Source: a virus
Taxonomy: Duplodnaviria; Heunggongvirae; Uroviricota; Caudoviricetes
Virus record (IMG/VR): IMGVR_UViG_3300029861_000002
Reading direction: 5' to 3' (one strand)
DNA length: 64,000 bases
The notes below the pieces were generated by a model, which saw only the letters and a list, made by a program, of their open reading frames with translations, was not told where the DNA came from and made no database searches. Below are positions 1,448 to 31,056 of the stretch, piece by piece. Position 1 is the stretch's first letter. Each line of letters begins with the position of its first letter. The translations under genes were made by a program, and so were the position numbers.

Positions 1448-1536
1448 GGAGGGGTGGCAGAGTGGTTGAATGCAAGGGATTGCTAATCCCTCGGCCACAG
1501 AAATGTGACCCGGAGGTTCGAATCCTCTCCCCTTCG
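1448..1536 (+). tRNA. tRNA-Ser(GCU)
   Basis: Type II tRNA. Acceptor GGAGGGG/CCCCUUC, D-arm GCAGAGTGGTTGAATGC, anticodon arm AGGGA-uuGCUaa-UCCCU, long variable arm, discriminator G, no encoded CCA. Confidence 0.8.
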
Positions 1537-1614
1537 CGTTATCAAGTAGAAGCCTTCACGTGGCGATAATGTTTTTACTAATTCTACAAAAATAAAAAGG
1601 AGCTGTTTAGATTT

Positions 1615-2220
1615 ATGGCATACATTTATTAGATAACCAACGACATAAACTAGAAAGTTTATGTCGGAAAAACAGAGTTTTCTATTGAAAAGCGTTTTAG
1701 GGAACATTGCAAGGATGCTTTCAAGGAGCAAAATGAGAAACGCCCATTATATGCCGCTATGCGAAAATATGGGGTAGAGCATTTCCATATAGAACTTCTT
1801 GAAGAAACAGATAATCCAGAAGAGAGAGAAAGATTCTGGATTGAACAATTAGGAAGTTTTAAGTATGGATATAATGCTACCTTAGGCGGCGACGGGAGAA
1901 GATATGTTGATTATGATTTAGTAATTAAATTATATGACGAATGTCACTCTCGTAATAAAGTGCATGAGTTAGTTGGATATGATAAAGGGACTATTTCAAG
2001 AATATTGGATTCTATTTCTACTCATGAAGAAAGAGATCGTTTTGGTCATATTCAGCTTCAAAAGCCAGTAGCAAGATTAGATAAAAACACTGGAGAAATT
2101 TTGGAAGTGTTTGATTCTGTTAGTGAAGCGGAACGGAAGTATAATACTAACAGACATATAGGACAAGTATGTCTTGGGAAAAGAAAAACTGCTGGCGGAT
2201 TTAAGTGGAAATATATTTAA
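1615..2220 (+). CDS. GIY-YIG homing endonuclease (2 in-frame TAG)
   Basis: RBS AAAAAGGAG. Translation MAYIY[TAG]ITNDIN[TAG]KVYVGKTEFSIEKRFREH... matches the GIY-YIG core (IYxITN..NGKxYVGxT...R...H). The C-terminus ..KTAGGFKWKYI is shared with the GIY-YIG gene at 45540. Intact only if TAG at 1630 and 1651 is read. Ends with TAA. Confidence 0.7.
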
Positions 2221-2533
2221 GATAGTATCGCCAATCGGGATAGACACTGTTGTATATGCCGGCCGCATATAAACGAGGCGATTGTGTCAATAGCGAAAAC
2301 CGACTAAGCTATTCCGTTCGCTTGCGGTGATAATACAAGCAACTTAATAAATCCGACAAGTTTGGTGGTACTGCTGCGGATGCCGGGAGGAACAGGGGCC
2401 AAAACCACAAGACAGAGGAATGGGTTCGACTCCCATACGGCCGGCAATTAGGCTGGCGGTTGGTGTATAGTGTGGAAACAAGCATACTGTCAATCTTATT
2501 ACCCTGAGCCGAGGTTTATATCGGCCATTATAT

Positions 2534-3689: not shown

Positions 3690-3860
3690 TTCCAACTATA
3701 AAGTTGGATAAATTCTCGAGAAGGGGTTTCACTGTTCCTAAGATGAGGCTACAATCATCAATACAGTGGTCAAGTGGTTTTCTTCTGCCGTTTACCAGTC
3801 AGTGGTGTAGCTCCAGAATAACGGCAAACCCTAGGAGGGTTGCAAACTTCCTAGTTTTAT

Positions 3861-3937
3861 ACTTCGGTAGTTCAGCTGGCTAGAATCCTCGACTGATAAT
3901 CGAGAGGTCGTGAGTTCAAGTCTCACCCGGAGTACCA
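3861..3937 (+). tRNA. tRNA-Ile(GAU)
   Basis: Acceptor ACUUCGG/CCGGAGU, anticodon arm CUCGA-cuGAUaa-UCGAG, T-loop TTCAAGT, encoded CCA. Confidence 0.85.
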
Positions 3938-4019
3938 GAATTAGGTTCTCTTTTCTATGATGAATTTGTTTGGTTCTCTTTTTCATCCAGTTTGCGGTCT
4001 GGTCAAAACCGCCTTATAT

Positions 4020-4093
4020 AAGGCGATCGGTTAATGGTAAACCAATGCTCTCCAAAAGCATGACTGTAGGTTCGAGTCCTACTCGCCTTGCCA
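4020..4093 (+). tRNA. tRNA-Trp(CCA)
   Basis: Acceptor AAGGCGA/UCGCCUU, anticodon arm AUGCU-cuCCAaa-AGCAU, T-loop TTCGAGT, discriminator G, encoded CCA. Confidence 0.8.
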
Positions 4094-4114
4094 ATATAAA
4101 GGAGGTTGATAAAA

Positions 4115-4348
4115 ATGGTAATGGATATTAACATCAAGAGTACCAATGATGTTGAGCGTCTAAATGCCGTAGCGAGTAAAACTCCAGATGTGCTTTGGGT
4201 TCATTCCAATGATGGCATGATTATGGTTGATGCTCGTAGTCTCCTTGGTTTGTTTGCCTTGATTGGTAAACCATGCAAGTTAGTTGCAGAAGATAGCACA
4301 GATTATAAAGTGCTTACCAAGGTGGCAAAAAAGGCCGGGGTAGCTTAA
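4115..4348 (+). CDS. hypothetical protein (faint HPr-like pattern)
   Basis: RBS AAGGAGG 9 nt upstream of ATG 4115. MVMDINIKSTNDVERLNAV...VDARSLLGLFALIG loosely resembles the phosphocarrier HPr fold. Confidence 0.45.
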   Translation: MVMDINIKSTNDVERLNAVASKTPDVLWVHSNDGMIMVDARSLLGLFALIGKPCKLVAEDSTDYKVLTKVAKKAGVA

Positions 4349-4359
4349 CCCCATTATTT

Positions 4360-4436
4360 GCCCCAGTAGCTCAGTTGGAAAGAGCACGCGCCTTCTAAGC
4401 GCGGTGTCAGGGGTTCGAGTCCCTTCTGGGGTACCA
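4360..4436 (+). tRNA. tRNA-Arg(UCU)
   Basis: Acceptor GCCCCAG/CUGGGGU, anticodon arm CGCGC-cuUCUaa-GCGCG, T-loop TTCGAGT, encoded CCA. Confidence 0.85.
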
Positions 4437-4516
4437 TTTCCGTTAGTTTAAAAGTGAAAACACAAGAGCGCGCGTCTTGTTTGCGAGTTGAGCATCGCCT
4501 CGCACGGAAAACCTAT

Positions 4517-4591
4517 GGGTTGTTAGCTTAACGGGCAGAGCAGTAGGTTGAAGCCCTACGGGACGAGGTTCGAGTCCTCGATAACCCACCA
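4517..4591 (+). tRNA. tRNA-Phe(GAA)
   Basis: Acceptor GGGUUGU/AUAACCC, anticodon arm GUAGG-uuGAAgc-CCUAC, T-loop TTCGAGT, encoded CCA. Confidence 0.85.
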
Positions 4592-4695
4592 GCCGAGAAA
4601 TCGGCAAACTATCTTTTCTATTTTTTTACAAGACCCTCTATGGTTATAGAGTCTAGAGTTCGATTCTTTCTGCAATAGATAGAGGGTCGCTATAT

Positions 4696-5026
4696 GGGGA
4701 TGCGTAGGTTCGACGGGGTAATGAGAAACTAGGATACACGGGTAGGCATACCGCCTTAAGGAGCAACAAAATTAAACGACAACGATTATTTTTCTAATAA
4801 CATCGCAGCTTGAGCATAGCTCGCTGTTTTAATCCCTTGGATTTCTCTATTTTCCTTTAATTAAATAGAGTGGTGGAGGCAGAGTACAACTGGTACTGCT
4901 CTATGGTTATTAGTAGTTTCAGCTAAAACTCCATTTATAAAAGTTTAAAGTGAAACTATCGTGTAATAATATTCTAGTTATGTAGTTATTTCGGACACGG
5001 AGTGCGACTCTCCGTCATCTCCACCA
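4696..5026 (+). ncRNA. ssrA: tmRNA (SsrA), about 331 nt
   Basis: The 5' end GGGGATGCGTAGGTTCGACGGGG matches the tmRNA consensus GGGGnnGnnnnGGnTTCGACnGGG. The 3' end has T-arm CGGAG-TGCGACT-CTCCG, acceptor CATCTCC pairing with the 5' GGGGATG, discriminator A, CCA. The internal tag frame is GCA ACA AAA ... ATC GCA GCT TGA, giving (A)TKLNDNDYFSNNIAA. Confidence 0.8.
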
Positions 5027-5112
5027 AGAGTTTCTTTCTTCTCTTAAAAAGAAAGTGGTGGATAATCGAAACCCAATTCGGCTCCATATATAACATATGT
5101 GGAGGAATTAAT

Positions 5113-5511
5113 ATGACAGAATTAGAAAGAGGATATTTGGCTGGCATTATTGATGGTGAGGGAAGTATTACTCTCACCAAGGATAAATAGTTTAGGTATC
5201 CAGTATTAGAAGTGTCTAGTACAACATCTCAAATTGTAGAATATCTTAAAGAGCATTTTGGAGGAGTTATTTCCAAGAAAAATGAGCGTAATCCAAAATG
5301 GAAACAGGCTTATATTTGGAAGATAGAGCGGAGAAAGGCTATTTCTTTGTTAGAAGAGATTGTCAGTTATCTTAATGAACCAAAGAAAAAAGCTAGAGCT
5401 TAGTTAATAATTAAAGACTATATACGCTTAACTCCTAGAAATGGGAGATATTCTGAAGAAATAAAATAGCAAAAACTTAAATTTGAAGAAGAATTTTTCA
5501 AGATAGAATAA
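5113..5511 (+). CDS. LAGLIDADG-family homing endonuclease (3 in-frame TAG)
   Basis: RBS GGAGGA. The N-terminus MTELERGYLAGIIDGEGSI is a LAGLIDADG motif. The frame stays open through TAG at 5188, 5401 and 5467 to TAA at 5509. It starts 87 nt after the tmRNA 3' end. The C-terminal extension beyond 5403 is less certain. Confidence 0.6.
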
Positions 5512-5538
5512 TTTACATAACAAGAGGAAAGGAAGTTT

Positions 5539-5994
5539 ATGATGGAGATTGAAAGAAAGTGGATTCTTCAAAGAGTTCCAACAGAGTTTCGATTAGTTAG
5601 AAATGCTCAGATAGAGCAATTCTACGTTTCAACAAGTCCTGAAGTGCGCTTGAGGCACAATCCCGCGAGCAACGAGCCTTTTAGAATTACAATTAAGGGC
5701 GAAGGGACTCTATCAAGAGAAGAGATTGAAACAAAAGTCTCTGAAAACTTCTATAATCAAGTCAAAGAGTTCGTGAATAAACCTCTGATTAAGAAAGATT
5801 ATTCTATCTTTAATTGCGGCGGGTATCCACTCGCGGTTTCTGTAGTAGACGATGGAGCTTTTATCTACGCAGAGGTCGAATTCGAATCGGAGGAGCAGGC
5901 CCGCGACTATCAGTTTCCTATTGATGATGCTATTGAAGTGACGGATGATTCAAATTACAAGATGAAAAATTATTGGTTACGTACTCGTAATTAA
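5539..5994 (+). CDS. CYTH-domain protein (triphosphate-tunnel metalloenzyme / CyaB-like)
   Basis: The N-terminal MMEIERKWIL pattern (EIERKF-type) is typical of the CYTH domain. 151 aa, RBS AGGAAAGGAAG. Confidence 0.65.
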   Translation: MMEIERKWILQRVPTEFRLVRNAQIEQFYVSTSPEVRLRHNPASNEPFRITIKGEGTLSREEIETKVSENFYNQVKEFVNKPLIKKDYSIFNCGGYPLAVSVVDDGAFIYAEVEFESEEQARDYQFPIDDAIEVTDDSNYKMKNYWLRTRN

Positions 5995-6068
5995 AATTTA
6001 GACCCGTACTGCAAAGAACTCTTTACCTGTTGTTTGAACTGGAGAAAAAGATGATGGGTCTAGTATAT

Positions 6069-6145
6069 GCGCCAGTAGCATAACGGAGAGTGCACAAGGC
6101 TACGAACCTTGGCTAGTGGGAGTTCGAATCTTCTCTGGCGTACCA
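6069..6145 (+). tRNA. tRNA-Arg(ACG)
   Basis: Acceptor GCGCCAG/CUGGCGU, anticodon arm CAAGG-cuACGaa-CCUUG, T-loop TTCGAAT, encoded CCA. Confidence 0.8.
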
Positions 6146-6148
6146 TAT

Positions 6149-6236
6149 GCAGAGGTGGCCGAGTCTGGTTTATGGCACCTGCCTAGAAAGCAGGCGGTCG
6201 AAAGGCCCGTGGGTTCAAATCCTACCCTCTGCGCCA
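6149..6236 (+). tRNA. tRNA-Ser (anticodon read as AGA, A34)
   Basis: Type II tRNA. Acceptor GCAGAGG/CCUCUGC, Ser-like D-arm GTGGCCGAGTCTGG, anticodon arm CCUGC-cuAGAaa-GCAGG, long variable arm, G73, CCA. A at position 34 is unusual. Confidence 0.65.
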
Positions 6237-6514
6237 CATTGGTATCTTACATACAAGTTTGAAAGGCAGTAAGAATAAATCGTCGGGCCTTAAATCCGAG
6301 CCAATAATAGGAAAGCTATATTCCGAGATACCCTTCGAGGATTGGAGCAACGAAGGTAAAAATAAAGTCCCCAAGATGTTTTCCGGTATCAGTACACAAC
6401 CGGCATAGAGCAGAAGGGTTCAGGGTCGGTGCCTCGTATAGCATTAGAGGAAACGGTAAGGACCAGGCATGGAAATCTGCGGAAGTGCGAGAAACCCTGT
6501 ATAGGAGAATATCT

Positions 6515-6673
6515 ATGAAAAATAAAATTGCGTGGTCAGATTTCTTTCAAGAATTTATTATCTGCGTTAAATACCTTGCAGATGATAATTGGTATTTTAT
6601 ATTTAGGGATGCAGTTGGAAATCAAAATCCAATTAAAGCCAAAACAAAATACTCCTATTTTGATTGGCAGTAA
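6515..6673 (+). CDS. hypothetical small protein
   Basis: 52 aa, weak RBS AGGAGAA, ends TAA immediately upstream of tRNA-Pro. Confidence 0.3.
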   Translation: MKNKIAWSDFFQEFIICVKYLADDNWYFIFRDAVGNQNPIKAKTKYSYFDWQ

Positions 6674-6680
6674 GTTATAT

Positions 6681-6751
6681 AGAGGATGTAGTGTAACGGT
6701 AACACGCCTGCTTTGGGAGCAGGAATAGCGGTTCGAATCCGACATCTTCTA
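6681..6751 (+). tRNA. tRNA-Pro(UGG) with weakened T-stem and no encoded CCA (copy adjacent to the HNH cassette)
   Basis: Acceptor AGAGGAU/AUCUUCU, D-stem GUGU/ACAC, anticodon arm CCUGC-uuUGGga-GCAGG, T-loop TTCGAAT. The 3' 23 nt CGGTTCGAATCCGACATCTTCTA is repeated at 7449-7471, where it is followed by CCA. Confidence 0.65.
6729..6751 (+). repeat. 23-bp direct repeat (copy 1) = tRNA-Pro T-arm/3' acceptor CGGTTCGAATCCGACATCTTCTA
   Basis: Identical 23-mer at 7449-7471, where it is followed by CCA. The two copies flank the 698-bp HNH cassette. Confidence 0.8.
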
Positions 6752-6874
6752 GGCTTATGAGGAGATTACCTGCACGTGGTATAAGCTGCTAAAACTAAAA
6801 ATCTCCATCGGTCAAAATTGGCCAAAGTAATTATCACTATTCTTATTTATAATAAGAATAAAGGAGGTAGTTTT

Positions 6875-7447
6875 ATGGCCAAAGCAATGACTTAGGAAGA
6901 ATTCGAGAAGAGAGTATCAGAATATACAAAAGATAGTGTAGACGTTATTTCTAAGTATATTAACAAAAGAACAAAAGTTAAAGTTAGATGTAAAACTTGC
7001 GGTTTTGAATGGGGAATGTCTCCTGCATCTTTAATGCCGAATGCGGCATCTAAACATACTTTTGTTGGTTGTTCTAACTGTAAGTATGAAGAAGTAGAAT
7101 GTCAATGGTGTCACAAGAAATTTCGTAGATTAAAAACTGAATTGGCTAAAAATAAAAGCGGATTCGTATATTGTTCTAGGGAATGTGGAAACCGACATAA
7201 GAACTCTTTGATTATTTAGGTAAATGACGGTGTGAACTATCACAGAAATGCCTTTTTGGCTTACCCACACAAATGCGATATTTGTGAATGGGGTGAAGAT
7301 GAACGAGTTTTAGAAGTTCATCATTTAGATGAAGATAGGTCAAATAATAAGATAGAAAACTTGCGAATCTTATGTCCTATATGTCATAAAAAACTTACTT
7401 TGCATCTTTACTCATATAAAGAGTTAAAAGATAAATACGGAGGATGA
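6875..7447 (+). CDS. HNH homing endonuclease (2 in-frame TAG)
   Basis: RBS AAGGAGG. The N-terminus MAKAMT[TAG]EEFEKRV matches the common HNH-endonuclease N-terminal 'TQEEF' pattern. Zinc-ribbon Cys pairs, then the HNH core EVHHLDEDRSNNKIENLRILCPICH. One frame from 6875 through TAG at 6893 and 7217 to TGA at 7445. Flanked by a 23-bp tRNA-Pro 3'-end repeat. Confidence 0.75.
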
Positions 7448-7448
7448 T

Positions 7449-7471
7449 CGGTTCGAATCCGACATCTTCTA
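7449..7471 (+). repeat. 23-bp direct repeat (copy 2) of the tRNA-Pro 3' end, followed by CCA
   Basis: Identical to 6729-6751. Overlaps the stop codon of the HNH gene. Confidence 0.8.
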
Positions 7472-7673
7472 CCATCTCGCTTTAATATGGCGAGAATATG
7501 TATCACTCCTTTCCTATAAAGGCTCAATACAGCAAACAAATGTATATGTAATACTTGGGAAAACCAAATAGTTCTACTATTAAGTTTTATGCTATGAAAT
7601 GCTTCTATGTGCAAAGGGAAGTTAAGAAGTATGGAGCTGTTCAACAAGCCCTTTTGAGCCTAGATTGAAAAAC

Positions 7674-16090: not shown

Positions 16091-17614
16091 ATGAATACAA
16101 TTCTTAACGCTATGAAGCAGATGGACAACATCACCACTACTGAAAACGGCGGCATTACCTATAAGTCTACGATGAGTGGAATCATGGATTTGTTCGCCAT
16201 GGGAGCTGCTTACCGCAAGCGCTCCGAGGATGACGTAATCTTCCTGTTCGATAAGGCTTTTAAGGAAGATGAAACTTATGCGCTCAAGTGCTTGTTTTAT
16301 CTGCGCGATGTGCGTGGTGGACAGGGCGAGCGCAGATTTTTCCGAGTAGCAACTAAGTGGTTGGCAAATCACCACACCGATGCAATGCGCCGCAATCTGA
16401 AGTATGTTCCCGAGTTCGGCAGATGGGATGACCTCTACGGCTTCGTTGGAACTCCCCTGGAAGATGAGGCTTTCGACATTATGTACCATCAGTTGGCTCT
16501 TGATGTTGAGTGTAAGACCCCTTCTCTTCTGGCTAAGTGGTTGAAGTCTGAAAATACCAGCTCCGCAGAATCTCGTAAGTTGGCTACTATTACTCGCACC
16601 CACTTCCGTATGACTCCTCGCCAGTATCGCAAGACTTTGTCCGTTCTCCGCAAGCGCATTAAGGTTCTTGAGAGACTTATGTCCGAGAATCGTTGGGACG
16701 AAATCGAGTTCGATAAGATTCCCTCTAAGGCGGGATTGATCTATCGTAATGCTTTCGCCCGTCATGACATTATGAGGGAGAAGGCTGATAAGCAGACTTA
16801 TGCGGAGTTTGCTAAGAGCACTGACACAAAGGTAAATGCCAAGGCCTTGAACCCCTGTGAGGTTGTCCATGAGGCGGTTAAGTTGAGTAGAGCATATCAT
16901 GCTGATGATACCGATCGTCTGATGATTGGCAAGTACTGGGATAATCTGGCAGATTATTTCCATGATGCCGTTTTCAATGGGGTTGCTGTTGTAGATACTT
17001 CTGCGTCTATGACAGGTGGCTTCAATGAGATTAATCCTATTGATGTGGCTATCTCTCTGGGAATGTATTGCGCTGAAAAGTGTAATGAAAGTTCTCCTTG
17101 GTATGGTCACTACATCACCTTCTCTCGTCAGGCTAGACTGGTACCTGTTGAGGGCATCGACTTCGTTGACAAGGTACATCGCATTTATAGCAAGAATCTC
17201 TGTGAGAATACTAACATTAAGAGTGTATTCGACTTAATTCTCAAGCTCACTATTGAGAATGGAGTAAAGCAGGAGGATATGCCTAAGAATGTAATCGTAA
17301 TTTCTGATATGGAGTTCGATTCCTGCGCCTCATTCGACGATAATTACGGTTATTGGAGTCGTTACAATAGAGATACCAAGTCTGAAATGGAGAAGATTGC
17401 AGACATTTGGAAGGCCCATGGTTATGAATTACCTAAGCTCGTTTTCTGGAATGTCCAGGCTCGTCAGGATAACATTCCTATGAGAGATAATGGCAGAGTT
17501 ACCTTTGTCAGTGGTTATTCTCCTGTGCTTTTCGAGCAGATTATGACCGGCAAGACTGGTATTGATCTTATCCTTGATAAGCTCAATAGTCAGAGATATG
17601 CGGTAATCCACTAA
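16091..17614 (+). CDS. Ro60-like protein (TROVE-like N-terminal region + vWA/MIDAS domain)
   Basis: 507 aa with RBS AAGGAGA. The MIDAS motif VVDTSASMTG and vWA-like C-terminal half sit behind an alpha-helical N-terminal region, the same architecture as Ro60/Rsr RNA-quality-control proteins. The TROVE assignment is inferred. Confidence 0.55.
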   Translation: MNTILNAMKQMDNITTTENGGITYKSTMSGIMDLFAMGAAYRKRSEDDVIFLFDKAFKEDETYALKCLFYLRDVRGGQGERRFFRVATKWLANHHTDAMRRNLKYVPEFGRWDDLYGFVGTPLEDEAFDIMYHQLALDVECKTPSLLAKWLKSENTSSAESRKLATITRTHFRMTPRQYRKTLSVLRKRIKVLERLMSENRWDEIEFDKIPSKAGLIYRNAFARHDIMREKADKQTYAEFAKSTDTKVNAKALNPCEVVHEAVKLSRAYHADDTDRLMIGKYWDNLADYFHDAVFNGVAVVDTSASMTGGFNEINPIDVAISLGMYCAEKCNESSPWYGHYITFSRQARLVPVEGIDFVDKVHRIYSKNLCENTNIKSVFDLILKLTIENGVKQEDMPKNVIVISDMEFDSCASFDDNYGYWSRYNRDTKSEMEKIADIWKAHGYELPKLVFWNVQARQDNIPMRDNGRVTFVSGYSPVLFEQIMTGKTGIDLILDKLNSQRYAVIH

Positions 17615-17761
17615 CCCTATTCGGGGAAATGGCAAGAAAAATGCCATTTCCCCGTTGCTGGCGGGCAGCCGGTTAGCCGTGCGGTTTCTGAGCTATTGCG
17701 CGGAACTACTCTTGAAAGTGTAATTGATACTCTCAAAAAGGAGTAACCGAATCTTTAATAA

Positions 17762-17797
17762 AGGAGAACGAGTTAATCGTTCTCCTTTATTTTTATA
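17762..17797 (+). terminator. rho-independent terminator
   Basis: AGGAGAACG-agttaat-CGTTCTCCT + TTATTTTTAT. Confidence 0.75.
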
Positions 17798-17852
17798 TTT
17801 ATATATGATATAATATTTATATAAAGGAAATGAAGAAGGGGAGTTTTAAGAA

Positions 17853-18164
17853 ATGGTTATTACTAAACACAGTAAGCAAAGAATTGTTGAAAGAACCAAT
17901 GGGGTATCTACTTTTGCAGAAGCAAAGAGATTGGCTAAGCAAGCTAGAATTTCTGGTAAAACGCTTAATCATTTCCAAAAGTATCCTAAATTCTTTTCTT
18001 ATCTTCAAAATAAAAAGAATCAAACCAATGATTGTTCCATCAGAGTTTATAGGGGCTGCATTTATATTTGGAGAGGAAGAAATAAGACTCTCGTAACTGC
18101 TCATCCTATACCCGAAAGGTATATCAAAGAAATGGAGGAGATTGATAATGAAGCTGTGGATTGA
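17853..18164 (+). CDS. hypothetical protein (DUF4258-like N-terminus)
   Basis: MVITKHSKQRIVERTNGVS resembles the DUF4258 pattern (ITxHAxxRMxERGIS). 103 aa. Confidence 0.4.
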   Translation: MVITKHSKQRIVERTNGVSTFAEAKRLAKQARISGKTLNHFQKYPKFFSYLQNKKNQTNDCSIRVYRGCIYIWRGRNKTLVTAHPIPERYIKEMEEIDNEAVD

Positions 18165-18468
18165 TGACCTACGGCCGGCGCCCTTTGGATACCGCATTGC
18201 TAGAAGCGTAAATGAGGCTATCGAGATAATTGAGACATATGAGATTATGCACCGAATGAGCGGTGGAAAGAAAATCTATGAAATTGAATTGATAGATATT
18301 GACCATGATGCCGGAGATTTCTTTCAAGATGGCGGAGATTATATCAAAATTCTTGATTGGATGGAAGTTACTAATAGAAACTACCCTATTCATATCCATA
18401 GTATGAATCCTGTTGGAATAGAAAATATGTGTCGTATTATTCAAAGAAATGGATGGAGAGAAGTATGA
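18148..18468 (+). CDS. hypothetical protein
   Basis: 106 aa. MKLWIDDLRPAPFGY...DIDHDAGDF. Overlaps the end of the preceding gene. Confidence 0.45.
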   Translation: MKLWIDDLRPAPFGYRIARSVNEAIEIIETYEIMHRMSGGKKIYEIELIDIDHDAGDFFQDGGDYIKILDWMEVTNRNYPIHIHSMNPVGIENMCRIIQRNGWREV

Positions 18469-18623
18469 GAGCATTTCTTATCGTTTCCCTTATTGTCCTT
18501 TTTTCTGGATTCATTATTTTCCTCATTTCGTACAATATAGCTTTTAACAATAACGGAGAAACAAAACTTAATTTATCAACCTTTAGAAAAATATATAAAA
18601 TAAATCCCGGAAATGGTCGGTAA
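18465..18623 (+). CDS. small membrane protein
   Basis: 52 aa with one predicted TM helix (AFLIVSLIVLFSGFIIFLISY). Confidence 0.4.
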   Translation: MRAFLIVSLIVLFSGFIIFLISYNIAFNNNGETKLNLSTFRKIYKINPGNGR

Positions 18624-18652
18624 AAGAAAAATGGGAGGATAGCATTAAACAT

Positions 18653-18880
18653 TTGTATTACAGCGGTCATAAAGTTAAATTAAGCTTCTTGGCTTTTTGT
18701 TATTTTCGATGGGATAGAATTTTCTCCAGATTTACCGAAAACAGAAAAGACCAAAGAGATACTTTAATTTGGGTACTGCAAGATTGTCAAAGGGACATTG
18801 AGATATTAAAAGAAAAATCAGAACGCCAAATCCAAGACGCATTGGAGCAGCAAAGAAAAATTTTTGAGAGATGGGAGTGA
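18653..18880 (+). CDS. hypothetical protein
   Basis: 75-aa ORF. Start uncertain. Confidence 0.4.
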   Translation: MYYSGHKVKLSFLAFCYFRWDRIFSRFTENRKDQRDTLIWVLQDCQRDIEILKEKSERQIQDALEQQRKIFERWE

Positions 18881-18884
18881 TTAA

Positions 18885-19682
18885 ATGACAATTTTTGAAC
18901 GAGTAAGAGAGCATTATGATGAAGCTCTTACCCATTTCACAGAAGACCAAGTTGTGGGAATCTTTCTTCAAGGTTCTCAAAACTATGGACTCGATACTCC
19001 GCAATCGGATGTAGATACAAAGCTAATTGTAGTTCCTAGCTTTAAAGACATTGCTATGAACCGCAAGCCAGTTAGCACAACTCATATTCGAGCAAACGAT
19101 GAACATACTGACTGGAAAGATATTCGCCTCTACATTCAGACATTCCGCAAACAAAACTTAAACTTCCTCGAAATTCTTTACACAGACTTTGCTATTGTTA
19201 ATCCCATCTATGAAAAACAGTGGAATCGTTTAATTCAAGCAAGAGAAAGGATTACTCATTTTAATCCTTATCGTTCTGTTCAAAGTATGAAGGGTATTGC
19301 GCTAGAAAAATATCACGCTATGGAGCATGAATACCCAAGTAAAGTTGAAGTTTTAAAGAAGTATGGTTACGATCCTAAACAACTCCATCATCTTGTTAGA
19401 GTAGAAGATTATCTTGGAAGATATATCGCAGGAGAAAGTTATGAGAGTTGTTTAAACCCAGGCCCATTCAAACAAGAGCTAATAGAAATTAAGATGGGCA
19501 AATATTCTCTCGCGGAAGCTAGGATTGTGGCAGATAAATCTAAGGCTCATGTGGAAGAAATGGCAGAGTATGCGTATTCTATCTATCCAAATAAAGAAGA
19601 CGCGGAAGTCAATGCTCTTCTTGATGATGTGCAATATGAGATTATGAAATTAGCGGTTGAAAGGGAGTTGAATAAAAGATGA
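18885..19682 (+). CDS. nucleotidyltransferase (Pol-beta superfamily minimal NTase fold)
   Basis: GSQNYGLDTPQSDVDT matches the G[SG]x9-13Dx[DE] nucleotidyltransferase motif. 265 aa. Confidence 0.65.
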   Translation: MTIFERVREHYDEALTHFTEDQVVGIFLQGSQNYGLDTPQSDVDTKLIVVPSFKDIAMNRKPVSTTHIRANDEHTDWKDIRLYIQTFRKQNLNFLEILYTDFAIVNPIYEKQWNRLIQARERITHFNPYRSVQSMKGIALEKYHAMEHEYPSKVEVLKKYGYDPKQLHHLVRVEDYLGRYIAGESYESCLNPGPFKQELIEIKMGKYSLAEARIVADKSKAHVEEMAEYAYSIYPNKEDAEVNALLDDVQYEIMKLAVERELNKR

Positions 19683-20548
19683 TTAAGAATTGGCTCGTGA
19701 CTGGAGATACACATGGGCGAGTTATGGAGCGCCTTTCGCAGATAGATAGCGATAAGTATATTCCTGACGAAACGGCTATCATTATTCTCGGTGATGCCGG
19801 AATCAATTACTTCTTGAATAAGACCGATGTAAAAAACAAGAAGTCTATTCAGGCAAGTGGCTACACTATTTATTGCGTCAGAGGAAACCATGAAATGCGG
19901 CCGGAGCGTCTTCCCGCAATTAACTGTGCCTTTGACTTTGAAGTTCAAGGTATAGTGCGCTATGAAGAGGATTATCCTCATATTAAATATCTTGTCAATA
20001 ATCAAATCTACAAATTTGGTGATTACTCTGCTCTTGTTATTGAAGGAGCCTATTCAGTAGATAAATATTATCGCCTTGCTGGAACTGGATTAACTGGGGA
20101 AGAGGATTATGAATTAGTCGCCAAGAAAGCTGGATGGTTTAAGGACGAACAGTTATCCGCGGAAGAAATGAATTTTGCAACATTGGTAATCAAAAATAAG
20201 CAAGTTGATTTTGTTCTTAGCCATACTTGTCCGCTCTCTTGGCAACCAGTAGATCTTTTCTTATCTGCCGTAAACCAGTCAACAGTAGATAATACGATGG
20301 AAAAATGGTTAGACTCTTTAAAGAATGAGTTTCAGTGGAAAATTTGGTTGTTCGGCCATTTCCATAAAGATAGAATTGAACGACCCCACGTAGAGCAGTT
20401 TTTCCAAGATATTCAGCCTATTGATTCTATCTATAATAGATGGTATGGAGAAAAAACTATTCACAAAGAATGGTACTTAGAAAAGTCGCCTAATTACTAT
20501 TTAAAGGGTGATACGCCTTTCGATGAAGATTTAAAGGAGGAGCTTTAA
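19679..20548 (+). CDS. calcineurin-like metallophosphoesterase
   Basis: Motifs GDTHG, GDAG and GNHE. 289 aa. Confidence 0.7.
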   Translation: MIKNWLVTGDTHGRVMERLSQIDSDKYIPDETAIIILGDAGINYFLNKTDVKNKKSIQASGYTIYCVRGNHEMRPERLPAINCAFDFEVQGIVRYEEDYPHIKYLVNNQIYKFGDYSALVIEGAYSVDKYYRLAGTGLTGEEDYELVAKKAGWFKDEQLSAEEMNFATLVIKNKQVDFVLSHTCPLSWQPVDLFLSAVNQSTVDNTMEKWLDSLKNEFQWKIWLFGHFHKDRIERPHVEQFFQDIQPIDSIYNRWYGEKTIHKEWYLEKSPNYYLKGDTPFDEDLKEEL

Positions 20549-20559
20549 GCCCTCCTTTA

Positions 20560-20618
20560 TTTTTTTATTTTTTTATGATATAATATATATAGAAAGTTAA
20601 GGAAAGGAAGTAATTTAT
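20560..20618 (+). promoter_or_regulatory. conserved promoter/leader motif copy
   Basis: TTTATGATATAATATATATAGAAAGTTAAGGAAAGGAAG. Confidence 0.6.
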
Positions 20619-20789
20619 ATGATGCCTTATGTATGCGAAGGAACAATCGTAAAGACTCTTAATGGTCGAGAGGGCAAGGTAGTTGGTGTTGATCGAAAGA
20701 ATAGGATCGCAGTTATCTACAATGGAAAAACTTCCTATACCGAGAAACTTGAAAATATCAGAGTTGTTTCTTATAAGGAGGTAGAGTGA
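20619..20789 (+). CDS. small hypothetical protein
   Basis: 56 aa. Conserved promoter/leader upstream (TGATATAATATATATAGAAAGTTAAGGAAAGGAAG). Confidence 0.4.
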   Translation: MMPYVCEGTIVKTLNGREGKVVGVDRKNRIAVIYNGKTSYTEKLENIRVVSYKEVE

Positions 20790-21070
20790 ATATGCCTGGT
20801 CGTAGAACTTCTAAGTTTACGAAGGATCAAAACGCCCTTCTTCAGGGAGAGGTTATGATCATTCTTGCGGAAAGTGAAGAGGCATTAACTATTGAAGAAA
20901 TTCAAGCAAGATCAATTACTCTTACAGGACTTTCTACTCAAAAGATTGCAAGACTACTCGGCCATTTGATTGAAATGGGAAACGTAACAAAAGCAAAGAG
21001 TAAGAGTCTTGGTAAGATGGTATATAAATCATTGGCCGTGATGAGGAGGCAGGGATATGATGTTTATTGA
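20786..21070 (+). CDS. hypothetical protein (possible winged-helix)
   Basis: 94 aa. Start overlaps the previous stop (ATGA-type coupling). Confidence 0.45.
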   Translation: MNMPGRRTSKFTKDQNALLQGEVMIILAESEEALTIEEIQARSITLTGLSTQKIARLLGHLIEMGNVTKAKSKSLGKMVYKSLAVMRRQGYDVY

Positions 21071-21310
21071 GGACACCTTTGATGTTATCTTCACTATTTA
21101 TCTAGGTAATTAGGTTATTGAGTAGTGGAGAATGCAAGCTCCTAGACCTTTTATTGAAGCTCAATTCATTTAGATAGTTCAGCAAATTGCTTCTTAGAAG
21201 TAGCCTATGAAAGTAGTAGTATCAAGAGAAGAAGTGATTTGGGACTAGTTTGAGCAAAAACATAAAGTTCTTCCAATAACTATGGAATTTCAAAACTATA
21301 AGGAGTAAAG

Positions 21311-21649
21311 ATGGAATTATACAACTTATATGCAGGCTTGAGCGGTGGATTTGGTGGTTACCAATATCATTGTACTGAGGAGTATAATTCTAAAGATGAA
21401 GCTCTGGAAGCCGCGAGGCAACTTGCTATTGAAGAATATCAATCTTATGAAGGTTGTCATGGGCTAACTTCTGAAGAAGATATTCTTGAGCAATATTTGA
21501 AAGACAATGGGTTATCACATGATGAACTAACTGAATCTGACTATGAAGAAATCTGGGATATGTATATGGAAGAAGTTGAAGGTTGGTTGTCCTATTTAGC
21601 AACTACCATAGAAGAAGATCCTGATCATGATAGATATTATGAATGGTAA
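21311..21649 (+). CDS. acidic hypothetical protein
   Basis: 112 aa with RBS AAGGAG. Asp/Glu-rich. Confidence 0.5.
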   Translation: MELYNLYAGLSGGFGGYQYHCTEEYNSKDEALEAARQLAIEEYQSYEGCHGLTSEEDILEQYLKDNGLSHDELTESDYEEIWDMYMEEVEGWLSYLATTIEEDPDHDRYYEW

Positions 21650-21666
21650 GAAAGGAGTACGATAAC

Positions 21667-21930
21667 ATGGGTGGTTATTACGGAGATATGGATACTTTTA
21701 TGATAGATGAAGGTATCCTGAATAAACTGGTCACATTCGGTTCATATGATGGCTTGCTCTTGACAGGAACAATCAAGTATGTTATCAAAATGGATAGTGA
21801 TTTCCTTATTGGAATTATCCCTGATCGAACTCCAGAAGATGTAGATGCTAAGCAAAAGGAAGATACAGGTATAGCTTTTGTACCTCTTTCTCGACTAATT
21901 AATTTAGATATATTTAAGATTTTTATGTAA
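21667..21930 (+). CDS. hypothetical protein
   Basis: 87 aa with RBS AAGGAG. Confidence 0.45.
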   Translation: MGGYYGDMDTFMIDEGILNKLVTFGSYDGLLLTGTIKYVIKMDSDFLIGIIPDRTPEDVDAKQKEDTGIAFVPLSRLINLDIFKIFM

Positions 21931-21946
21931 TGAGGAGGCATGAAAG

Positions 21947-23221
21947 ATGGCTTATTTTGGTCTGGTGACTAAGATTCAGAACGTGCGGAAAGACCCGAAT
22001 TCCGATCGGCTATATCTAGCGGATTGCTTTAATGAAGGAGTAATCGTAGGCCCTGACATGAAGACCGGAGATCTGGTGCTCTATCTGCCCACCGATGGAG
22101 AAATTGAACGCTGGTTTGGTAATGAATTCTGCCTTTTCCGCAAGAATGAAGATGGATCTATTCAGGGCGGATACCTTGAAAATAATGGCCATGTGCGGGC
22201 CATTAAGCTCCGCGGCAATCAGTCTTCTGGTATTGTCATTGCTCTTGATCGAGTCTATGAAAAGTTTGGTGACCAGCATTGGAGTAATGGAGATAAAGTA
22301 ACTACTATCAATGACAAGGAGTTTTGCCGTAAGTATATTCCTAAGCGAAAGAGCGATTCTACTTATGGAGCAAAGACTTCTTACAAAGGGCGCAAAGCTG
22401 AGGGGATTACTTATCCTGAGTTCTCTATGCATACTGATACCGAGCAGCTTGCATATAACTTTGATAAGTTCCGTGAGGGTGATGAACTAAATATGACCCT
22501 CAAGATGCATGGCACCTCTCAGCGCTCTATGAATACTTATGCAGAGCTTCCTAATGGTTTCTTCCGTCGCCTTTTCCATATGAAGAAGCGCACTAAGCAG
22601 GCTTATGTTCTTGGAACTCGCCGTTGTGTGGTGACTGAAAACTCTCAGGGGTACTATGGGAACGATCAGTTCCGTATGCCTCATCATGAAGCTTTAAAGC
22701 CCTATCTTGAGCCTGGGATGGAAGTTTTTTACGAAGTAGTAGGCTACTATGGGCCAAATGAAGAGAATACTATTATGCCTATTGGTGATAATACTAAAAT
22801 CAATGATAAGGCTTTTGTAAAGCAGTTTGGTAAACGGTCTATCTTCTCTTATGGCTGTGAACCCGGTCAGAGTAAAATGTATATCTATCGCATCACCTCT
22901 GAAAATGGAGAGAGAGAGTGGACTCCTGACGAAATTACTGCCTGGTGCGATTGGCATGGTTTTAATCGCGTTCCTGTAATTGAGAACTTCAAGTTTACTA
23001 CCGTTGAGGATCTTCAGGAGCGTATCAATAAATACTTCGAAGATCTCGCAGATCCGATCGGCCGCACCCATGTTAAGGAAGGAGTAGTTATCCGAATTGT
23101 AAATCGGCGTACTTTTACTGCTTTCAAGTCAAAAACCTTTGAATTTAAAGTTATTTCTGGGATTGCTACAGAGAGCGTAAATTCTAGTAATATTTCTGAA
23201 GATATTCTTGCGGAAATGTAA
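21947..23221 (+). CDS. putative ATP-dependent RNA ligase (Rnl2-like nucleotidyltransferase motif I)
   Basis: 424 aa. The segment TLKMHGTSQRS resembles the Rnl2/ligase motif I (KxHGxN/S lysine-adenylate site). RBS GAGGAGG. The family assignment is tentative. Confidence 0.45.
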   Translation: MAYFGLVTKIQNVRKDPNSDRLYLADCFNEGVIVGPDMKTGDLVLYLPTDGEIERWFGNEFCLFRKNEDGSIQGGYLENNGHVRAIKLRGNQSSGIVIALDRVYEKFGDQHWSNGDKVTTINDKEFCRKYIPKRKSDSTYGAKTSYKGRKAEGITYPEFSMHTDTEQLAYNFDKFREGDELNMTLKMHGTSQRSMNTYAELPNGFFRRLFHMKKRTKQAYVLGTRRCVVTENSQGYYGNDQFRMPHHEALKPYLEPGMEVFYEVVGYYGPNEENTIMPIGDNTKINDKAFVKQFGKRSIFSYGCEPGQSKMYIYRITSENGEREWTPDEITAWCDWHGFNRVPVIENFKFTTVEDLQERINKYFEDLADPIGRTHVKEGVVIRIVNRRTFTAFKSKTFEFKVISGIATESVNSSNISEDILAEM

Positions 23222-23317
23222 TTTACCCACAAATTTAAAAAAAAAGAGGGTAAAATGATTAAATCATCTCCTTTTATTTCTTATATAATGTAGACAATAA
23301 AAAGGAGATGATTTTTA

Positions 23318-24181
23318 TGCCAAAAGCATTAGATTTAACTGGTCAAAAGTTTGGAAAATTAACCGCTTTACGTAGATTACCAAATCAAGGTCGTAGAACT
23401 ATTTGGGAATGTTAGTGTGACTGTGGTAATATAATCCCCGTCCGCGCAGAAAATTTAAGAAGTGGGCATACTACCTCATGCGGATGTAAAAAGAGAGAGC
23501 CATCTAAAAAATTTGTTGATTTAACAGGACAGAAATTTGGGGAATGGACAGTATTATCAAAAGCAGAGAAAGAGAGCTACTGGCTATGTGAATGTTCTTG
23601 TGGAGTAAAAAGAGAAGTATATGCCCCATCATTAAAGAGTGGAAAATCTCTTTCTTGTGGACATTTATTTAAAAATTAGATTCGTAATCCTATTATAGGA
23701 AGCAGATATGGAAATTTAATTGTGTTAGAACAATTTAAAGAAAATGATACTTGGTGTTGTAAATGCTAGTGCGACTGTGGAAATATCACGATTGTAAAAA
23801 GACAAAATTTAACTTCTGGGAATACCTAGTCTTGTGGTTGTATAATCTCAAAAGGAGAAGCTAGAATAAAACGGATCTTGCAAGAAGCAAATATACCCTT
23901 TATTTCTCAATGGACGCCACAGGATTATCCAAATCAAAAATGTAAATTTGATTTTTACATAGACAATAAGTATGTAGTAGAGTTCGATGGTCCATAGCAT
24001 GAAGGTCAAGTAAGTGGATATTATACTAAAGAAAAAGTAGACGCTTTAATGCAAAGAGACTAGGAAAAAAATAAATATTGCCTATCTCACAATATTCCTT
24101 TATATCGTATTCCATACGAATATAGAGATACAATAACCTTAGAGCTGCTAACGGATGAAAAATTTCTCGTTAAATCTTGAA
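23318..24181 (+). CDS. homing-endonuclease-like protein with repeated Zn-ribbon modules and DUF559/Vsr-like nuclease C-terminus (7 in-frame TAG)
   Basis: RBS AAAGGAGA. Repeated LTGQKFG(K/E)LT...W(E/L)C[x]CDCGN...SG.T.SCGC modules, where x is encoded by TAG three times. The C-terminus FDFYIDNKYVVEFDGP[TAG]HEG matches the DUF559 restriction-endonuclease-like fold (FDGxQH). A single 288-codon frame to TGA at 24179. No ORF of 60 aa or more appears in the six-frame track here because of the TAGs. Confidence 0.65.
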
Positions 24182-24263
24182 TTAAAGGAGAGTCATATCT
24201 CTCCTTTAATTTTTTAATAAAATATGATATAATATTTATATAAAGGAAAAGGAGTATAACAAA

Positions 24264-24803
24264 ATGTATAGAAAGATACTTATAATTGTTGATGCTCAAA
24301 ATGATTTCATCACTAGGGCGCTAGGTACAAAGGAGGCGGATGCCGCAGTTCCCAATATCGTTGATCTAATTAAACGATTCTGTTGGGAGGAAATTATTTG
24401 TACCATGGATACCCATGATGATGATTACTTTGATACTTTAGAAGGAAAGAGACTTCCTATTAAACATTGTATTAAGGCAAGCGTGGGCTGGTGTATGGAT
24501 TCCAGAGTTGTGATTGCGTTGAATAACAAGTTTAATTATTATGAAAAAGACACCTTTGGCAGTACCGATATGGTTAATGAGGTATATGATTCTCTAAAGA
24601 TGAAGAATCCAGAGGAAGTAGAAATTCATATCTGCGGATTTTGTACCGATATCTGCGTTATGGCTAACGCGGTTATGCTTCGTGCAGCGTTGCCAAATAC
24701 TAGAATTATCGTTCATTCTAGTGCGTGCGCAGGAGTAACTCCAGAATCGCATGAGGCAGCGCTAACTATTTTCAAAGCTCAACAGATTGATGTGGAGGAT
24801 TAA
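24264..24803 (+). CDS. isochorismatase-family cysteine hydrolase (nicotinamidase PncA-like)
   Basis: 179 aa. The N-terminal ILIIVDAQNDF is the family signature, and a Cys nucleophile lies in the ICGFCTDICV region. Confidence 0.7.
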   Translation: MYRKILIIVDAQNDFITRALGTKEADAAVPNIVDLIKRFCWEEIICTMDTHDDDYFDTLEGKRLPIKHCIKASVGWCMDSRVVIALNNKFNYYEKDTFGSTDMVNEVYDSLKMKNPEEVEIHICGFCTDICVMANAVMLRAALPNTRIIVHSSACAGVTPESHEAALTIFKAQQIDVED

Positions 24804-24806
24804 GAA

Positions 24807-25619
24807 ATGATTAGTCTGATTAACACGCGCAGTCATTGGACAGATGTAATTGAGCAAAATCATTTTCCCGATGGAACGCTGCATATTAATATGCCGCCCA
24901 ATTATTTTGATTACGATACCGTTCTTTGGGAGTATGAGAACGATGCAGAACTGTTCACTCTAATTTGCGTAAAGGGACACTTTAAAGATTGTCCCTTGAG
25001 GCTCGATATGCCATATATTCCTCATGCAAGAATGGATAGAGTGCAAGAACTTGAAGATGTGTTTACCCTTAAATATTTCTGTCAAGTAATCAATGGTCTT
25101 CACTTCGATAAAGTCATTGTAAGAGATGCTCATTCTAATGTAGCATTAGCTCTGCTCGATAGGGTAATTGATCTTACTCCTATTGGAGAAATCAAAGAGG
25201 CTATCAAACTTTTTGAGCATTATGAAAAAGAAACTCCCGTTCTATTTTTCCCGGACGAGGGAGCTATGAAGAGATATTCCACTCCAGCAATTAATCTTCC
25301 ATACGCCTTTGGAATTAAAAAGAGGGATTGGTCTACTGGAAAAATTCTTGGTCTACAACTAATGAATGGTGAGTTGGTTAAAGATAAGGGTGTTCTAATT
25401 GTAGACGATATTTGCTCTCGGGGAGGAACTTTCTATCACGCGGCAAACGCTCTAAAAGAAGCAGGAGCAAAAAATATTTATCTTTACGTCACTCATGCAG
25501 AACATACTATGGTTGAAGGTGATATGTATAATCAGGATATTGTAAAGAAAATCTTTACCACTGATAGCATCTTTAAGCCTGAGTGGGATACTAGAGGAAA
25601 GGTAGAAATTGTTCGATGA
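24807..25619 (+). CDS. ribose-phosphate pyrophosphokinase (Prs)-like phosphoribosyltransferase, a candidate NARP1 Adps
   Basis: PRPP-binding motif VLIVDDICSRGGT with a Prs-like N-terminal half. 270 aa, adjacent to the NAMPT-like gene. Confidence 0.55.
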   Translation: MISLINTRSHWTDVIEQNHFPDGTLHINMPPNYFDYDTVLWEYENDAELFTLICVKGHFKDCPLRLDMPYIPHARMDRVQELEDVFTLKYFCQVINGLHFDKVIVRDAHSNVALALLDRVIDLTPIGEIKEAIKLFEHYEKETPVLFFPDEGAMKRYSTPAINLPYAFGIKKRDWSTGKILGLQLMNGELVKDKGVLIVDDICSRGGTFYHAANALKEAGAKNIYLYVTHAEHTMVEGDMYNQDIVKKIFTTDSIFKPEWDTRGKVEIVR

Positions 25620-26430: not shown

Positions 26431-26513
26431 TAAAAAGCTCTCTTATGAGAGCTTTTTATTTTTATAAAAATATATGTTATAATATAATAAAGAAATAAGG
26501 AAAGGAAGATTTT

Positions 26514-28103: not shown

Positions 28104-28108
28104 ATCTT

Positions 28109-28831: not shown

Positions 28832-28894
28832 ATAAAGAGAGCTTTACGCTCTCTTTATTTTTATATTTTATTATGGTATAATATAATAAAGGAA

Positions 28895-31050: not shown

Positions 31051-31056
31051 TAAAAC

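Follow-up and report, generated by a model that had tools for sequence, protein, structure and literature searches.

The window, a 64,000-nt stretch of Caudoviricetes DNA (IMG/VR record IMGVR_UViG_3300029861_000002), contains an insert directly behind a tRNA-Pro(UGG) gene, flanked by two copies of a 23-nt segment from the 3' end of that tRNA. We interpret positions 6752–7448, together with the tRNA relic at 7449–7474, as a mobile homing cassette made up of a predicted self-cleaving theta ribozyme, a Shine-Dalgarno sequence and a gene for an HNH endonuclease, and put the probability that it works as proposed below at roughly 70%. The three modules follow one another in this order, are joined exactly after the discriminator base of the tRNA and leave the encoded CCA displaced 720 bp downstream. 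Relatives of the locus, cited here by handles such as L025, are public viral and metagenome contigs found by scanning for the 23-mer, for related HNH genes or for the ribozyme pattern. The features of the locus are as follows, with the evidence for each in parentheses.

6681–6751, plus strand: tRNA-Pro(UGG), copy 1, from position 1 to the discriminator A73 (ARAGORN, Rfam tRNA model, uninterrupted relatives).
6729–6751, plus strand: 23-mer copy 1, comprising the T arm from tRNA position 49, the 3' acceptor strand and A73 (exact repeat).
6752–6806, plus strand: theta ribozyme, a minimal self-cleaving element of the hepatitis delta virus (HDV)-like type, with the predicted cut 5' of G6752 (segmentation, covariation).
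6861–6867, plus strand: Shine-Dalgarno-like AAGGAGG, 7 nt 5' of the HNH start codon (read from the sequence).
6875–7447, plus strand: HNH endonuclease gene of 190 codons, stop codon TGA at 7445–7447 (Pfam HNH and HNH_3, phrog_1271).
7439–7474, plus strand: tRNA-Pro relic or minihelix (acceptor/T-arm hairpin fold; homologous relics in L026, L027 and L231).
7449–7471, plus strand: 23-mer copy 2, within the relic (exact repeat).

The tRNA-Pro(UGG) gene is called at 6680–6752 by ARAGORN and at 6682–6750 by the Rfam tRNA model (51.3 bits); since CCA stands directly 3' of the base equivalent to A6751 in uninterrupted relatives, the mature tRNA extends from A6681 to A6751 (A73). The 23-mer CGGTTCGAATCCGACATCTTCTA is duplicated exactly at 6729–6751 and 7449–7471, as the first-pass annotation of this DNA had stated, with a start-to-start distance of 720 nt and no third match in the window at up to three mismatches (expected number 0 in 100 shuffles). 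The stretch between the copies measures 697 nt (6752–7448) and not the 698 bp given previously. The reported difference in CCA is likewise present, copy 1 being followed by GGC and copy 2 by CCA (7472–7474) in register with A73. CCA is encoded by 24 of the 26 tRNA genes of the window; the exceptions, tRNA-Pro(UGG) and tRNA-Ser(GCU), are exactly those with a ribozyme–endonuclease cassette directly downstream. Mismatches do weaken the T stem of copy 1 (AGCGG/CCGAC), as had been remarked, but they were not caused by the insertion, an identical T arm with the same G·A and A·C mismatches being native to every uninterrupted relative. Which of the two copies completes the functional tRNA had been left unclear, and the answer follows from the position of the predicted ribozyme cleavage site, exactly after A73 of copy 1: copy 1 should be the complete tRNA, its 3' end formed by the predicted ribozyme cut and its CCA added later.

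Comparison with relatives revealed both filled and empty alleles of the site. An independent assembly that is 99.6% identical (L011; Logan ERR12394244) carries both 23-mers in the same filled arrangement, which is therefore not an assembly artefact. L025 bears the empty allele: positions 3860–6751 and 7449–9623 of the window align to it, with flanks that are ~99% identical near the site (moving away from the site, the left flank differs first at 6686, then at 6640 and 6517, the right flank first at 7817), and at the tRNA-Pro site the difference amounts to exactly 720 bp. The empty allele is also found in L002/L020, which are syntenic with the window (tRNA-Arg, tRNA-Ser, ..., tRNA-Pro, ..., tRNA-Val) at 80–92% identity. 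In L025 and L002/L020 alike, an uninterrupted tRNA-Pro, which the first-pass annotation had proposed to look for as an empty site, is followed directly by CCATCTCGC..., as is copy 2 in the window. The HNH gene is thus polymorphic for presence and absence at one defined site with exact junctions, filled in the window and L011 and empty in L025 and L002/L020. The same annotation had named two findings that would together count against it, namely relatives with no empty site and a repeat explained by tandem tRNA duplication; the former is contradicted by L025 and L002/L020, whereas copy 2 does come close to a tandem tRNA duplication.

The junction of A73 with the GG of the ribozyme, followed by the HNH gene, recurs behind tRNA-Pro in L006, L012, L018, L026, L029, L229, L231, L232 and L233. 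A blastn search of positions 6000–8300 against GenBank phages returned generic tRNA matches only and no relative, and an exact search of viral contigs with the 5' half of tRNA-Pro gave no match. Directly 5' of tRNA-Pro lies a 178-bp segment (6499–6676) that includes most of a 62-codon open reading frame (ORF; 6485–6673), is present in L025 and is absent from L002/L020; this indel is separate from that of the HNH cassette. A larger 950-bp unit (6499–7448), in which the small ORF, tRNA-Pro and the cassette together would have replaced the 5' part of a resident tRNA, was considered and rejected, L025 having the 178-bp segment plus the empty site.

The first-pass annotation had missed the element with which the insert opens, a theta ribozyme at 6752–6806 that is predicted to cleave itself and whose first nucleotide, G6752, lies directly 3' of the discriminator A6751. 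Its predicted parts, listed here, make up a nested double pseudoknot in which P4 is reduced to a short loop.

6752–6758 with 6781–6787, plus strand: P1, 7 bp, with a G1·U wobble at the cleavage site.
6759–6760, plus strand: J1/2.
6761–6767 with 6800–6806, plus strand: P2, 7 bp.
6768–6770 with 6778–6780, plus strand: P3, 3 bp.
6772–6773 (GC) with 6788–6789 (GC), plus strand: P1.1, two pairs.
6790–6794, plus strand: L4, 5 nt.
6795–6799, plus strand: J4/2, with the putative catalytic C at 6795.

Read in order, positions 6752–6806 divide into GGCTTAT, GA, GGAGATT, ACC, T, GC, ACGT, GGT, ATAAGCT, GC, TAAAA, CTAAA and AATCTCC. The supplementary table of the theta ribozyme study, in the part compared here, lays its sequences out as P1, J1/2, P2, ACC, T, NN, ACGT, GGT, P1', NN, L4, CTAA and P2' (PMC10879173), and the window element splits into segments identical to those of the supplementary sequences compared; its exact sequence is not among them.

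Covariation across related loci supports the assignment. The core of the window element reads ACC U GC ACGU GGU, followed further on by C6795 and UAAA, and the column of this C is invariant in the ribozyme alignment. In related cassettes, the ~55 nt after the junction hold an invariant core, CCUKCACGUGG and then UGYU..ACUAA, flanked by helices that vary in sequence and keep their complementarity. Over 51 distinct instances, pairing holds in 99.4% of the cells of P1, 92.2% of those of P2 and 100% of those of P3, and both partners vary at each of the 14 P1/P2 pairs as well as at the first pair of P3. Overall, 91% of cells are paired, compared with 55% in shuffles and 34–50% when the partners are slid by one to three columns, and none of 500 shuffles reached the observed covariation score. 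Because the register had been chosen to maximise pairing, a null test with random flanks was performed, in which at least 13 of the 14 pairs formed in 0.1% of trials, as against 50 of 55 real instances. Rfam 15 contains no model that detects the ribozyme (E ≤ 1 over 5500–9000; E ≤ 10 over 6740–6820), and its minimum-free-energy fold has a z-score of −1.1 in a type of folding that cannot represent the pseudoknot.

A pattern scan for the ribozyme returned at least 120 loci, many of them by chance, which were filtered by the full core and the pairing test. The filtered module occurs in dozens of viral contigs, nearly always abutting a CCA-less tRNA 3' end. Among loci found by the ribozyme pattern alone, an HNH or GIY-YIG ORF lies directly 3' of nine of 39 distinct ribozymes (phmmer), and one further GIY-YIG-like start was seen by eye, so that ribozyme and endonuclease are linked beyond this window as well.

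The HNH gene with TAG codons that had been described between the two repeats is confirmed, ORF 6875–7447 being intact and matching both Pfam and PHROG models (Pfam HNH, 23.6 bits against a cut-off of 21.4; HNH_3, 26.3 bits against 24.8; phrog_1271, E = 3e-18). Homologues of ~190 amino acids (aa) number 209, with invariant catalytic and zinc residues; in the 32 homologues in which individual positions were compared, H149, H150, N158, N162 and H171 and the zinc ligands C134, C137, C167 and C170 are invariant, and all of them are kept in the window protein. In-frame TAG codons occur at 6893–6895 and 7217–7219. The window supplies a tRNA for this codon.

14995–15069, plus strand: suppressor tRNA with anticodon CUA (ARAGORN; Rfam tRNA model, 61.6 bits).

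The CUA anticodon, together with the CAA (Gln) codon that the L012 homologue has at the position of the first TAG in the window, indicates that TAG is read as glutamine. Both endonuclease genes, this one and the GIY-YIG gene described below, depend on the suppressor tRNA for translation of their TAG codons.

Members of the HNH family were gathered from viral contigs with a family profile, and nearly all full-length members adjoin a tRNA gene. This is tRNA-Pro(UGG) just 5' of the HNH gene in L032–L041 and L063 and just 3' of it in L030, L031, L042 and L050, while a sister clade adjoins tRNA-Ala(UGC). At several loci, a resident tRNA-Pro is split around a cassette that carries a tRNA-Pro of its own; the split pieces in L041 and L036 have complementary acceptor strands, and the break lies at or after the anticodon arm or variable loop. 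Some cassette-linked tRNA-Pro genes and relics (L012 1500–1572, L026 2300–2372, L029 2355–2423 and L027 686–714) have odd T loops of the form GNCRGYA, with GTCAGTA, GGCGGCA or GGCAGCA replacing TTCGAAT. None is called by ARAGORN, and the T stem still covaries (CGG/CCG versus CCG/CGG); they may be endonuclease-immune variants or degenerating genes.

The second 23-mer belongs to a larger structure, which in the window is built as follows.

7439–7446, plus strand: 5' acceptor-strand remnant, GGAGGATG, overlapping the last HNH codons and the stop codon.
7448–7462, plus strand: T arm.
7463–7470, plus strand: 3' acceptor strand.
7471, plus strand: A73.
7472–7474, plus strand: CCA.

Positions 7439–7470 fold into an acceptor/T-arm hairpin (−15.2 kcal/mol, z = −2.5), and a similar fold is found in L027 (z = −2.65). 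A right-hand tRNA-Pro remnant is present in only four of 11 related ribozyme and HNH cassettes at the A73 junction, and its extent differs among them. After the HNH gene, the remnants are these.

Window and L011: tRNA positions 49–76.
L027: AGCGGGGCAGCACCGACATTCTCTGCCA.
L026: ATAG, then TTCGAATCCGACATCCTCTACCA.
L231: AGGAGCAAG, then ATCCGACATCTTCTACCA.

All four remnant loci share an ORF end, K-Y-(G/R)-(G/R/E)-stop with the codons TAY RGA RGR TGA (TAG in L027), which resembles a tRNA leader plus 5' acceptor strand (TAT AGA GGA TG). Within each remnant, the 5' strand is complementary to the 3' strand of that remnant rather than to the one in copy 1: L027 shows AGAGAGT opposite ATTCTCT, and L026 has A1..T72 in the relic versus C1..G72 in copy 1 of the same locus. 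On this pattern of pairing, copy 2 most likely represents what remains of a complete second copy of tRNA-Pro from which an internal part was deleted, and neither a target duplication by staggered cutting nor an att core. Repeats of the tRNA 3' end of at least 12 nt after ribozyme cassettes were found only in the window and L011 (23 nt) and in L231 (14 nt), with the T loops of the next tRNA excluded. Of the earlier reading of this locus as the footprint of a mobile element at a tRNA 3' end, the homing-type insertion without an integrase holds; the 23-bp repeat, however, is not general to the element.

A second cassette of the same kind, with a different endonuclease, lies behind the other CCA-less tRNA gene.

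1448–1537, plus strand: tRNA-Ser(GCU), CCA-less (ARAGORN; CCA follows in L025).
1538–2226, plus strand: second cassette, theta ribozyme and GIY-YIG gene, absent from L025 (alignment break 1537/2227).
About 1537/1538–1588, plus strand: second predicted theta ribozyme (ribozyme parse; G1538 follows G73–C74 of tRNA-Ser).
1615–2220, plus strand: GIY-YIG endonuclease ORF with two in-frame TAG codons (Pfam GIY-YIG, E = 8e-12).

At the empty tRNA-Ser site of L025 (5190–5225), CCCCT is followed by TCGCCAA twice in tandem and then by TCGGG, where the window has TCGC, the cassette and TCGCCAA; the 7-nt tandem repeat could be the footprint of an earlier insertion or loss. In-frame TAG codons are unevenly spread over the window, with none in many long ORFs and 6–11 in a few (23308–24180, 34693–36027, 43235–44146, 45540–46202 and 53269–54453). 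One of the TAG-rich ORFs, 45540–46202, is GIY-YIG-like and starts MSCGIYKITNLVNGKIYVGQS, and another, 23308–24180, is repeat-rich and without a match in Pfam. The recoded, TAG-bearing genes seem to include endonuclease genes.

We propose that the tRNA-Pro cassette works in the following way. It would be transcribed as part of the tRNA array, and the double pseudoknot of the ribozyme would cleave at its own 5' boundary (A6751/G6752), releasing a tRNA-Pro with a cyclic phosphate on A73. This end would then be healed by enzymes of the host or the phage, with CCA addition to follow, so that the tRNA would survive the insertion, and the same cut would give the endonuclease mRNA a 5'-OH and a structured 5' end. 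The two TAG codons may restrict HNH synthesis to the phase of infection in which the phage suppressor tRNA is active. When a cassette-free relative infects the same cell, the HNH protein would cut or nick its tRNA-Pro gene, with the T arm or its vicinity as the likeliest target by analogy with SegB of phage T4, and repair would copy the cassette, with tRNA-Pro as left homology and the relic plus downstream DNA as right homology. Copy 2 would be a second tRNA-Pro copy minus about positions 9–48, and recombination between the 23-mers could excise the cassette precisely, restoring tRNA-Pro-CCA. The minihelix might serve as an RNA processing signal, as a structure at the mRNA 3' end or as a homology arm.

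The window encodes enzymes of the RNA-repair type, in line with the gene enrichment of theta-ribozyme phages: an RlaP nucleotidyltransferase, an RNA ligase, a Thg1-like enzyme and three metallophosphoesterases. They lie in an RNA-repair-type gene cluster (16091–31620), all genes of which are without TAG codons.

16091–17614: DUF2828/DUF7788 protein.
18885–19682: RlaP-type nucleotidyltransferase.
19679–20548, 28937–29629 and 31057–31620: metallophosphoesterases.
21947–23221: RNA ligase.
29622–30467: Thg1-like enzyme.

Several observations limit or weigh against the interpretation of the insert as a mobile cassette that works in this way. P1.1, although GC/GC in the window, is paired in only 47% of alignment cells, partly through register ambiguity. 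A scan limited to sigma-70-type promoters predicted none on the plus strand between the tRNA and the HNH ORF, so that the HNH mRNA probably arises from the transcript of the tRNA array through cleavage by the predicted ribozyme. The sole nearby difference between the window and L025, an A/G at 6686 inside the tRNA, does not amount to a clear co-conversion tract. Since the two 23-mers would permit a precise loss of the cassette that regenerates the L025 allele, the alleles fit gain in the window lineage as well as loss in L025. With tRNA positions 1–73 and both 23-mers intact, a target wholly inside the tRNA would still be cut in the cassette-bearing genome, which poses a problem of self-immunity. 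Finally, the likeness of 7436–7448 to the tRNA 5' end, 9 of 13 positions and outside the three-mismatch search, is weak taken alone, for which reason the origin of the relic is argued from the related loci L026, L027 and L231. The precise loss of the cassette through its 23-bp repeats, the lack of a clear co-conversion tract and the self-immunity problem would suit a cassette that is not actively mobile, its HNH gene a domesticated or decaying passenger and its alleles the product of ordinary phage recombination or of deletion between the 23-mers. Yet the HNH gene retains an intact ORF and every catalytic residue, the same cassette and junction occur in many unrelated neighbourhoods, and the tRNA-Ser cassette, whose endonuclease is of another family, is likewise present in the window and absent from L025; we regard such immobility as improbable, ranking it behind the one-sided homing considered next.

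The flanking repeat itself admits other origins. It might have been created de novo by one-sided homing, in which the HNH enzyme cut a tRNA-Pro gene free of the cassette at 48/49, the left end copied the 3' part of the donor tRNA along with the cassette and the right end was joined non-homologously, 23 bp then being the distance from cut to insertion and the 13 nt at 7436–7448 filler. The left boundary of the repeat does coincide with the beginning of the T arm, the region attacked by SegB-type enzymes, the right remnants start at differing tRNA positions in the window, L026, L027 and L231, and most related cassettes have no remnant; but the four cassettes with a remnant have a homologous right end, AAATAY RGA RGR TGA (TAG in L027), that pairs with the 3' strand of its own locus, which is unexpected for filler or for independent illegitimate joins. 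This origin is unlikely in our view, though the least improbable of the alternatives. A tRNA whose true 3' part is copy 2, with 720 nt excised like an intron or spanned by long-range pairing, would account for the restriction of CCA to copy 2 and for T7448, which precedes that copy and would improve the T stem. Copy 1, however, is contiguous and scores as a full tRNA, Rfam models gave no group I or group II intron signal at E ≤ 1 over 5500–9000, the predicted ribozyme would sever the transcript between the parts, and the G·A mismatch of the T stem is native to all uninterrupted relatives, all of which makes a split tRNA very improbable. The direct repeat of a tRNA 3' end around an insert also recalls an integrative element of the integrase type, with the 23-mers as attL and attR cores; here the gene content of the insert is decisive, 697 nt with one substantial ORF (HNH) and no recombinase, and it rules such an element out, quite apart from the lack of a flanking repeat in most related cassettes.

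Other features of the tRNA array were recorded alongside the cassettes. A full-length ROOL RNA (8464–9059; Rfam RF03087, 350 bits) lies between tRNA-Gln(UUG) and tRNA-Gln(CUG); it is present in L025 and absent from L002, in which the two tRNA-Gln genes are 3 nt apart. A tmRNA gene at 4696–5026 (Rfam RF00023, 69.9 bits), not reported by ARAGORN, is located inside the array. The tRNA model also matches a 121-nt stretch at 9326–9446 (46.6 bits) that has no ARAGORN call and could represent a tRNA containing an insertion or an intron, and a weak tRNA-like remnant (8298–8358, 21.8 bits) lies just 5' of tRNA-Gln(UUG). The motif ACAGCAA, often as TACAGCAAAT, recurs in intergenic stretches of the arrays (7531–7537 in the window; L001, L002, L009, L012, L026 and L231), and ATATGTATCACTCCTTTCCT is conserved 3' of tRNA-Pro in the window, L002, L025 and L231. 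A conserved 151-aa ORF (MMEIERKWILQRVP...) is present in the array of the window (5539–5994), L002, L012 (674–1129) and L013, without any match in Pfam at E ≤ 0.01.

Taken one by one, the components are known, whether theta ribozymes, free-standing endonucleases of tRNA arrays or TAG recoding. In the window, theta ribozymes and homing endonucleases are joined in one insertion, twice and with two endonuclease families, and no description of a cassette of theta ribozyme plus endonuclease, present or absent at the junction of discriminator and CCA, was found in open-access papers and preprints. We suggest, tentatively and at somewhat less than even odds, that such cassettes form a distinct class of selfish element in which a ribozyme, rather than a self-splicing intron or an intein, renders an insertion in an essential RNA gene harmless and tRNA-derived arms, the minihelix relic among them, aid homing. 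If so, they could home into any phage that has the same tRNA, and a single cut would both free the tRNA and mature the mRNA. The arrangement points to a simple means by which a selfish gene could occupy a tRNA 3' end and leave the tRNA unharmed, the ribozyme recreating the end of the tRNA. It would also offer a second explanation for the commonness of theta ribozymes, described in 2024 as devices of tRNA maturation and recoding, part of the theta ribozymes of gut phages then existing through endonuclease mobility and not through tRNA regulation or code switching. The proposal predicts that CCA-less tRNA genes in phage arrays that otherwise encode CCA mark such insertions.

The closest functional analogues, by analogy of arrangement, appear to be the 5' HDV-like ribozyme of R2 elements, which occupy rRNA genes, and the GIR1 ribozyme of twin-ribozyme introns, which matures the mRNA of an endonuclease borne by the intron. 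In both, a selfish element lodged in the gene for a structural RNA shares its transcript and has its mRNA freed by a ribozyme of its own. These elements belong to eukaryotes; the mobility of R2 depends on reverse transcription, and GIR1 is housed in a group I intron. Unlike these, the present element would be a phage cassette that homes at the DNA level, and its predicted cut also forms the 3' end of a tRNA. The wider context of R2 retrotransposons is given elsewhere (PMC11331408). Integrase-mediated insertion at tRNA 3' ends likewise preserves the tRNA and leaves its 3' segment as a direct repeat on either side of the insert, whereas the present insert is shorter than 1 kb, carries no recombinase and belongs to a family in which the repeat is not constant. 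In the atp6/ORF360 case of Allomyces, ascribed to Paquin, Laforest and Lang (1994), an endonuclease insert reportedly leaves a working gene together with a displaced remnant of its 3' end downstream. That target, unlike the present one, is a mitochondrial protein-coding gene, with neither ribozyme nor tRNA.

SegB of phages T4 and T6, a free-standing GIY-YIG endonuclease, has a 27-bp recognition site in tRNA genes, with the conserved T-psi-C stem-loop at its centre (PMC2330249), spreads itself together with neighbouring tRNA genes and drives duplications of tRNA arrays (PMC2330249; PMC13096335). The cassette resembles it in that an endonuclease gene is embedded in a phage tRNA array, and differs in that the product of 6875–7447 is an HNH rather than a GIY-YIG protein, is tied to tRNA-Pro (tRNA-Ala in the sister clade) and is joined to a predicted ribozyme. 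The left boundary of the 23-mer and the split boundaries of L041 and L036, all at or near the T arm, are circumstantial evidence for a possible SegB-like recognition of this arm.

The theta ribozymes themselves were described by Kienbeck et al. (2024) as undergoing Mg2+-dependent self-scission in vitro, with cleavage at G1 adjoining the tRNA end, and in four of them a C-to-U change in J4/2 abolished self-scission (PMC10879173). Only 4.5% of the associated tRNAs encode CCA, and the ribozymes are enriched in TAG-recoded gut phages, the carriers being enriched in turn in genes for RNA ligases and nucleotidyltransferases (PMC10879173). The window element agrees with them in segment order, in the core ACC-U-NN-ACGU-GGU followed by CUAA in J4/2, in its length of ~55 nt, in abutting a CCA-less tRNA 3' end and in its setting, a TAG-recoded phage with a suppressor tRNA, an RNA ligase and a nucleotidyltransferase. 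That paper makes no mention of endonucleases or homing (PMC10879173). In contrast to the published description, the ribozyme here is the first module of an insertion that bears an endonuclease gene and is present in one and absent from the other of two near-identical phages.

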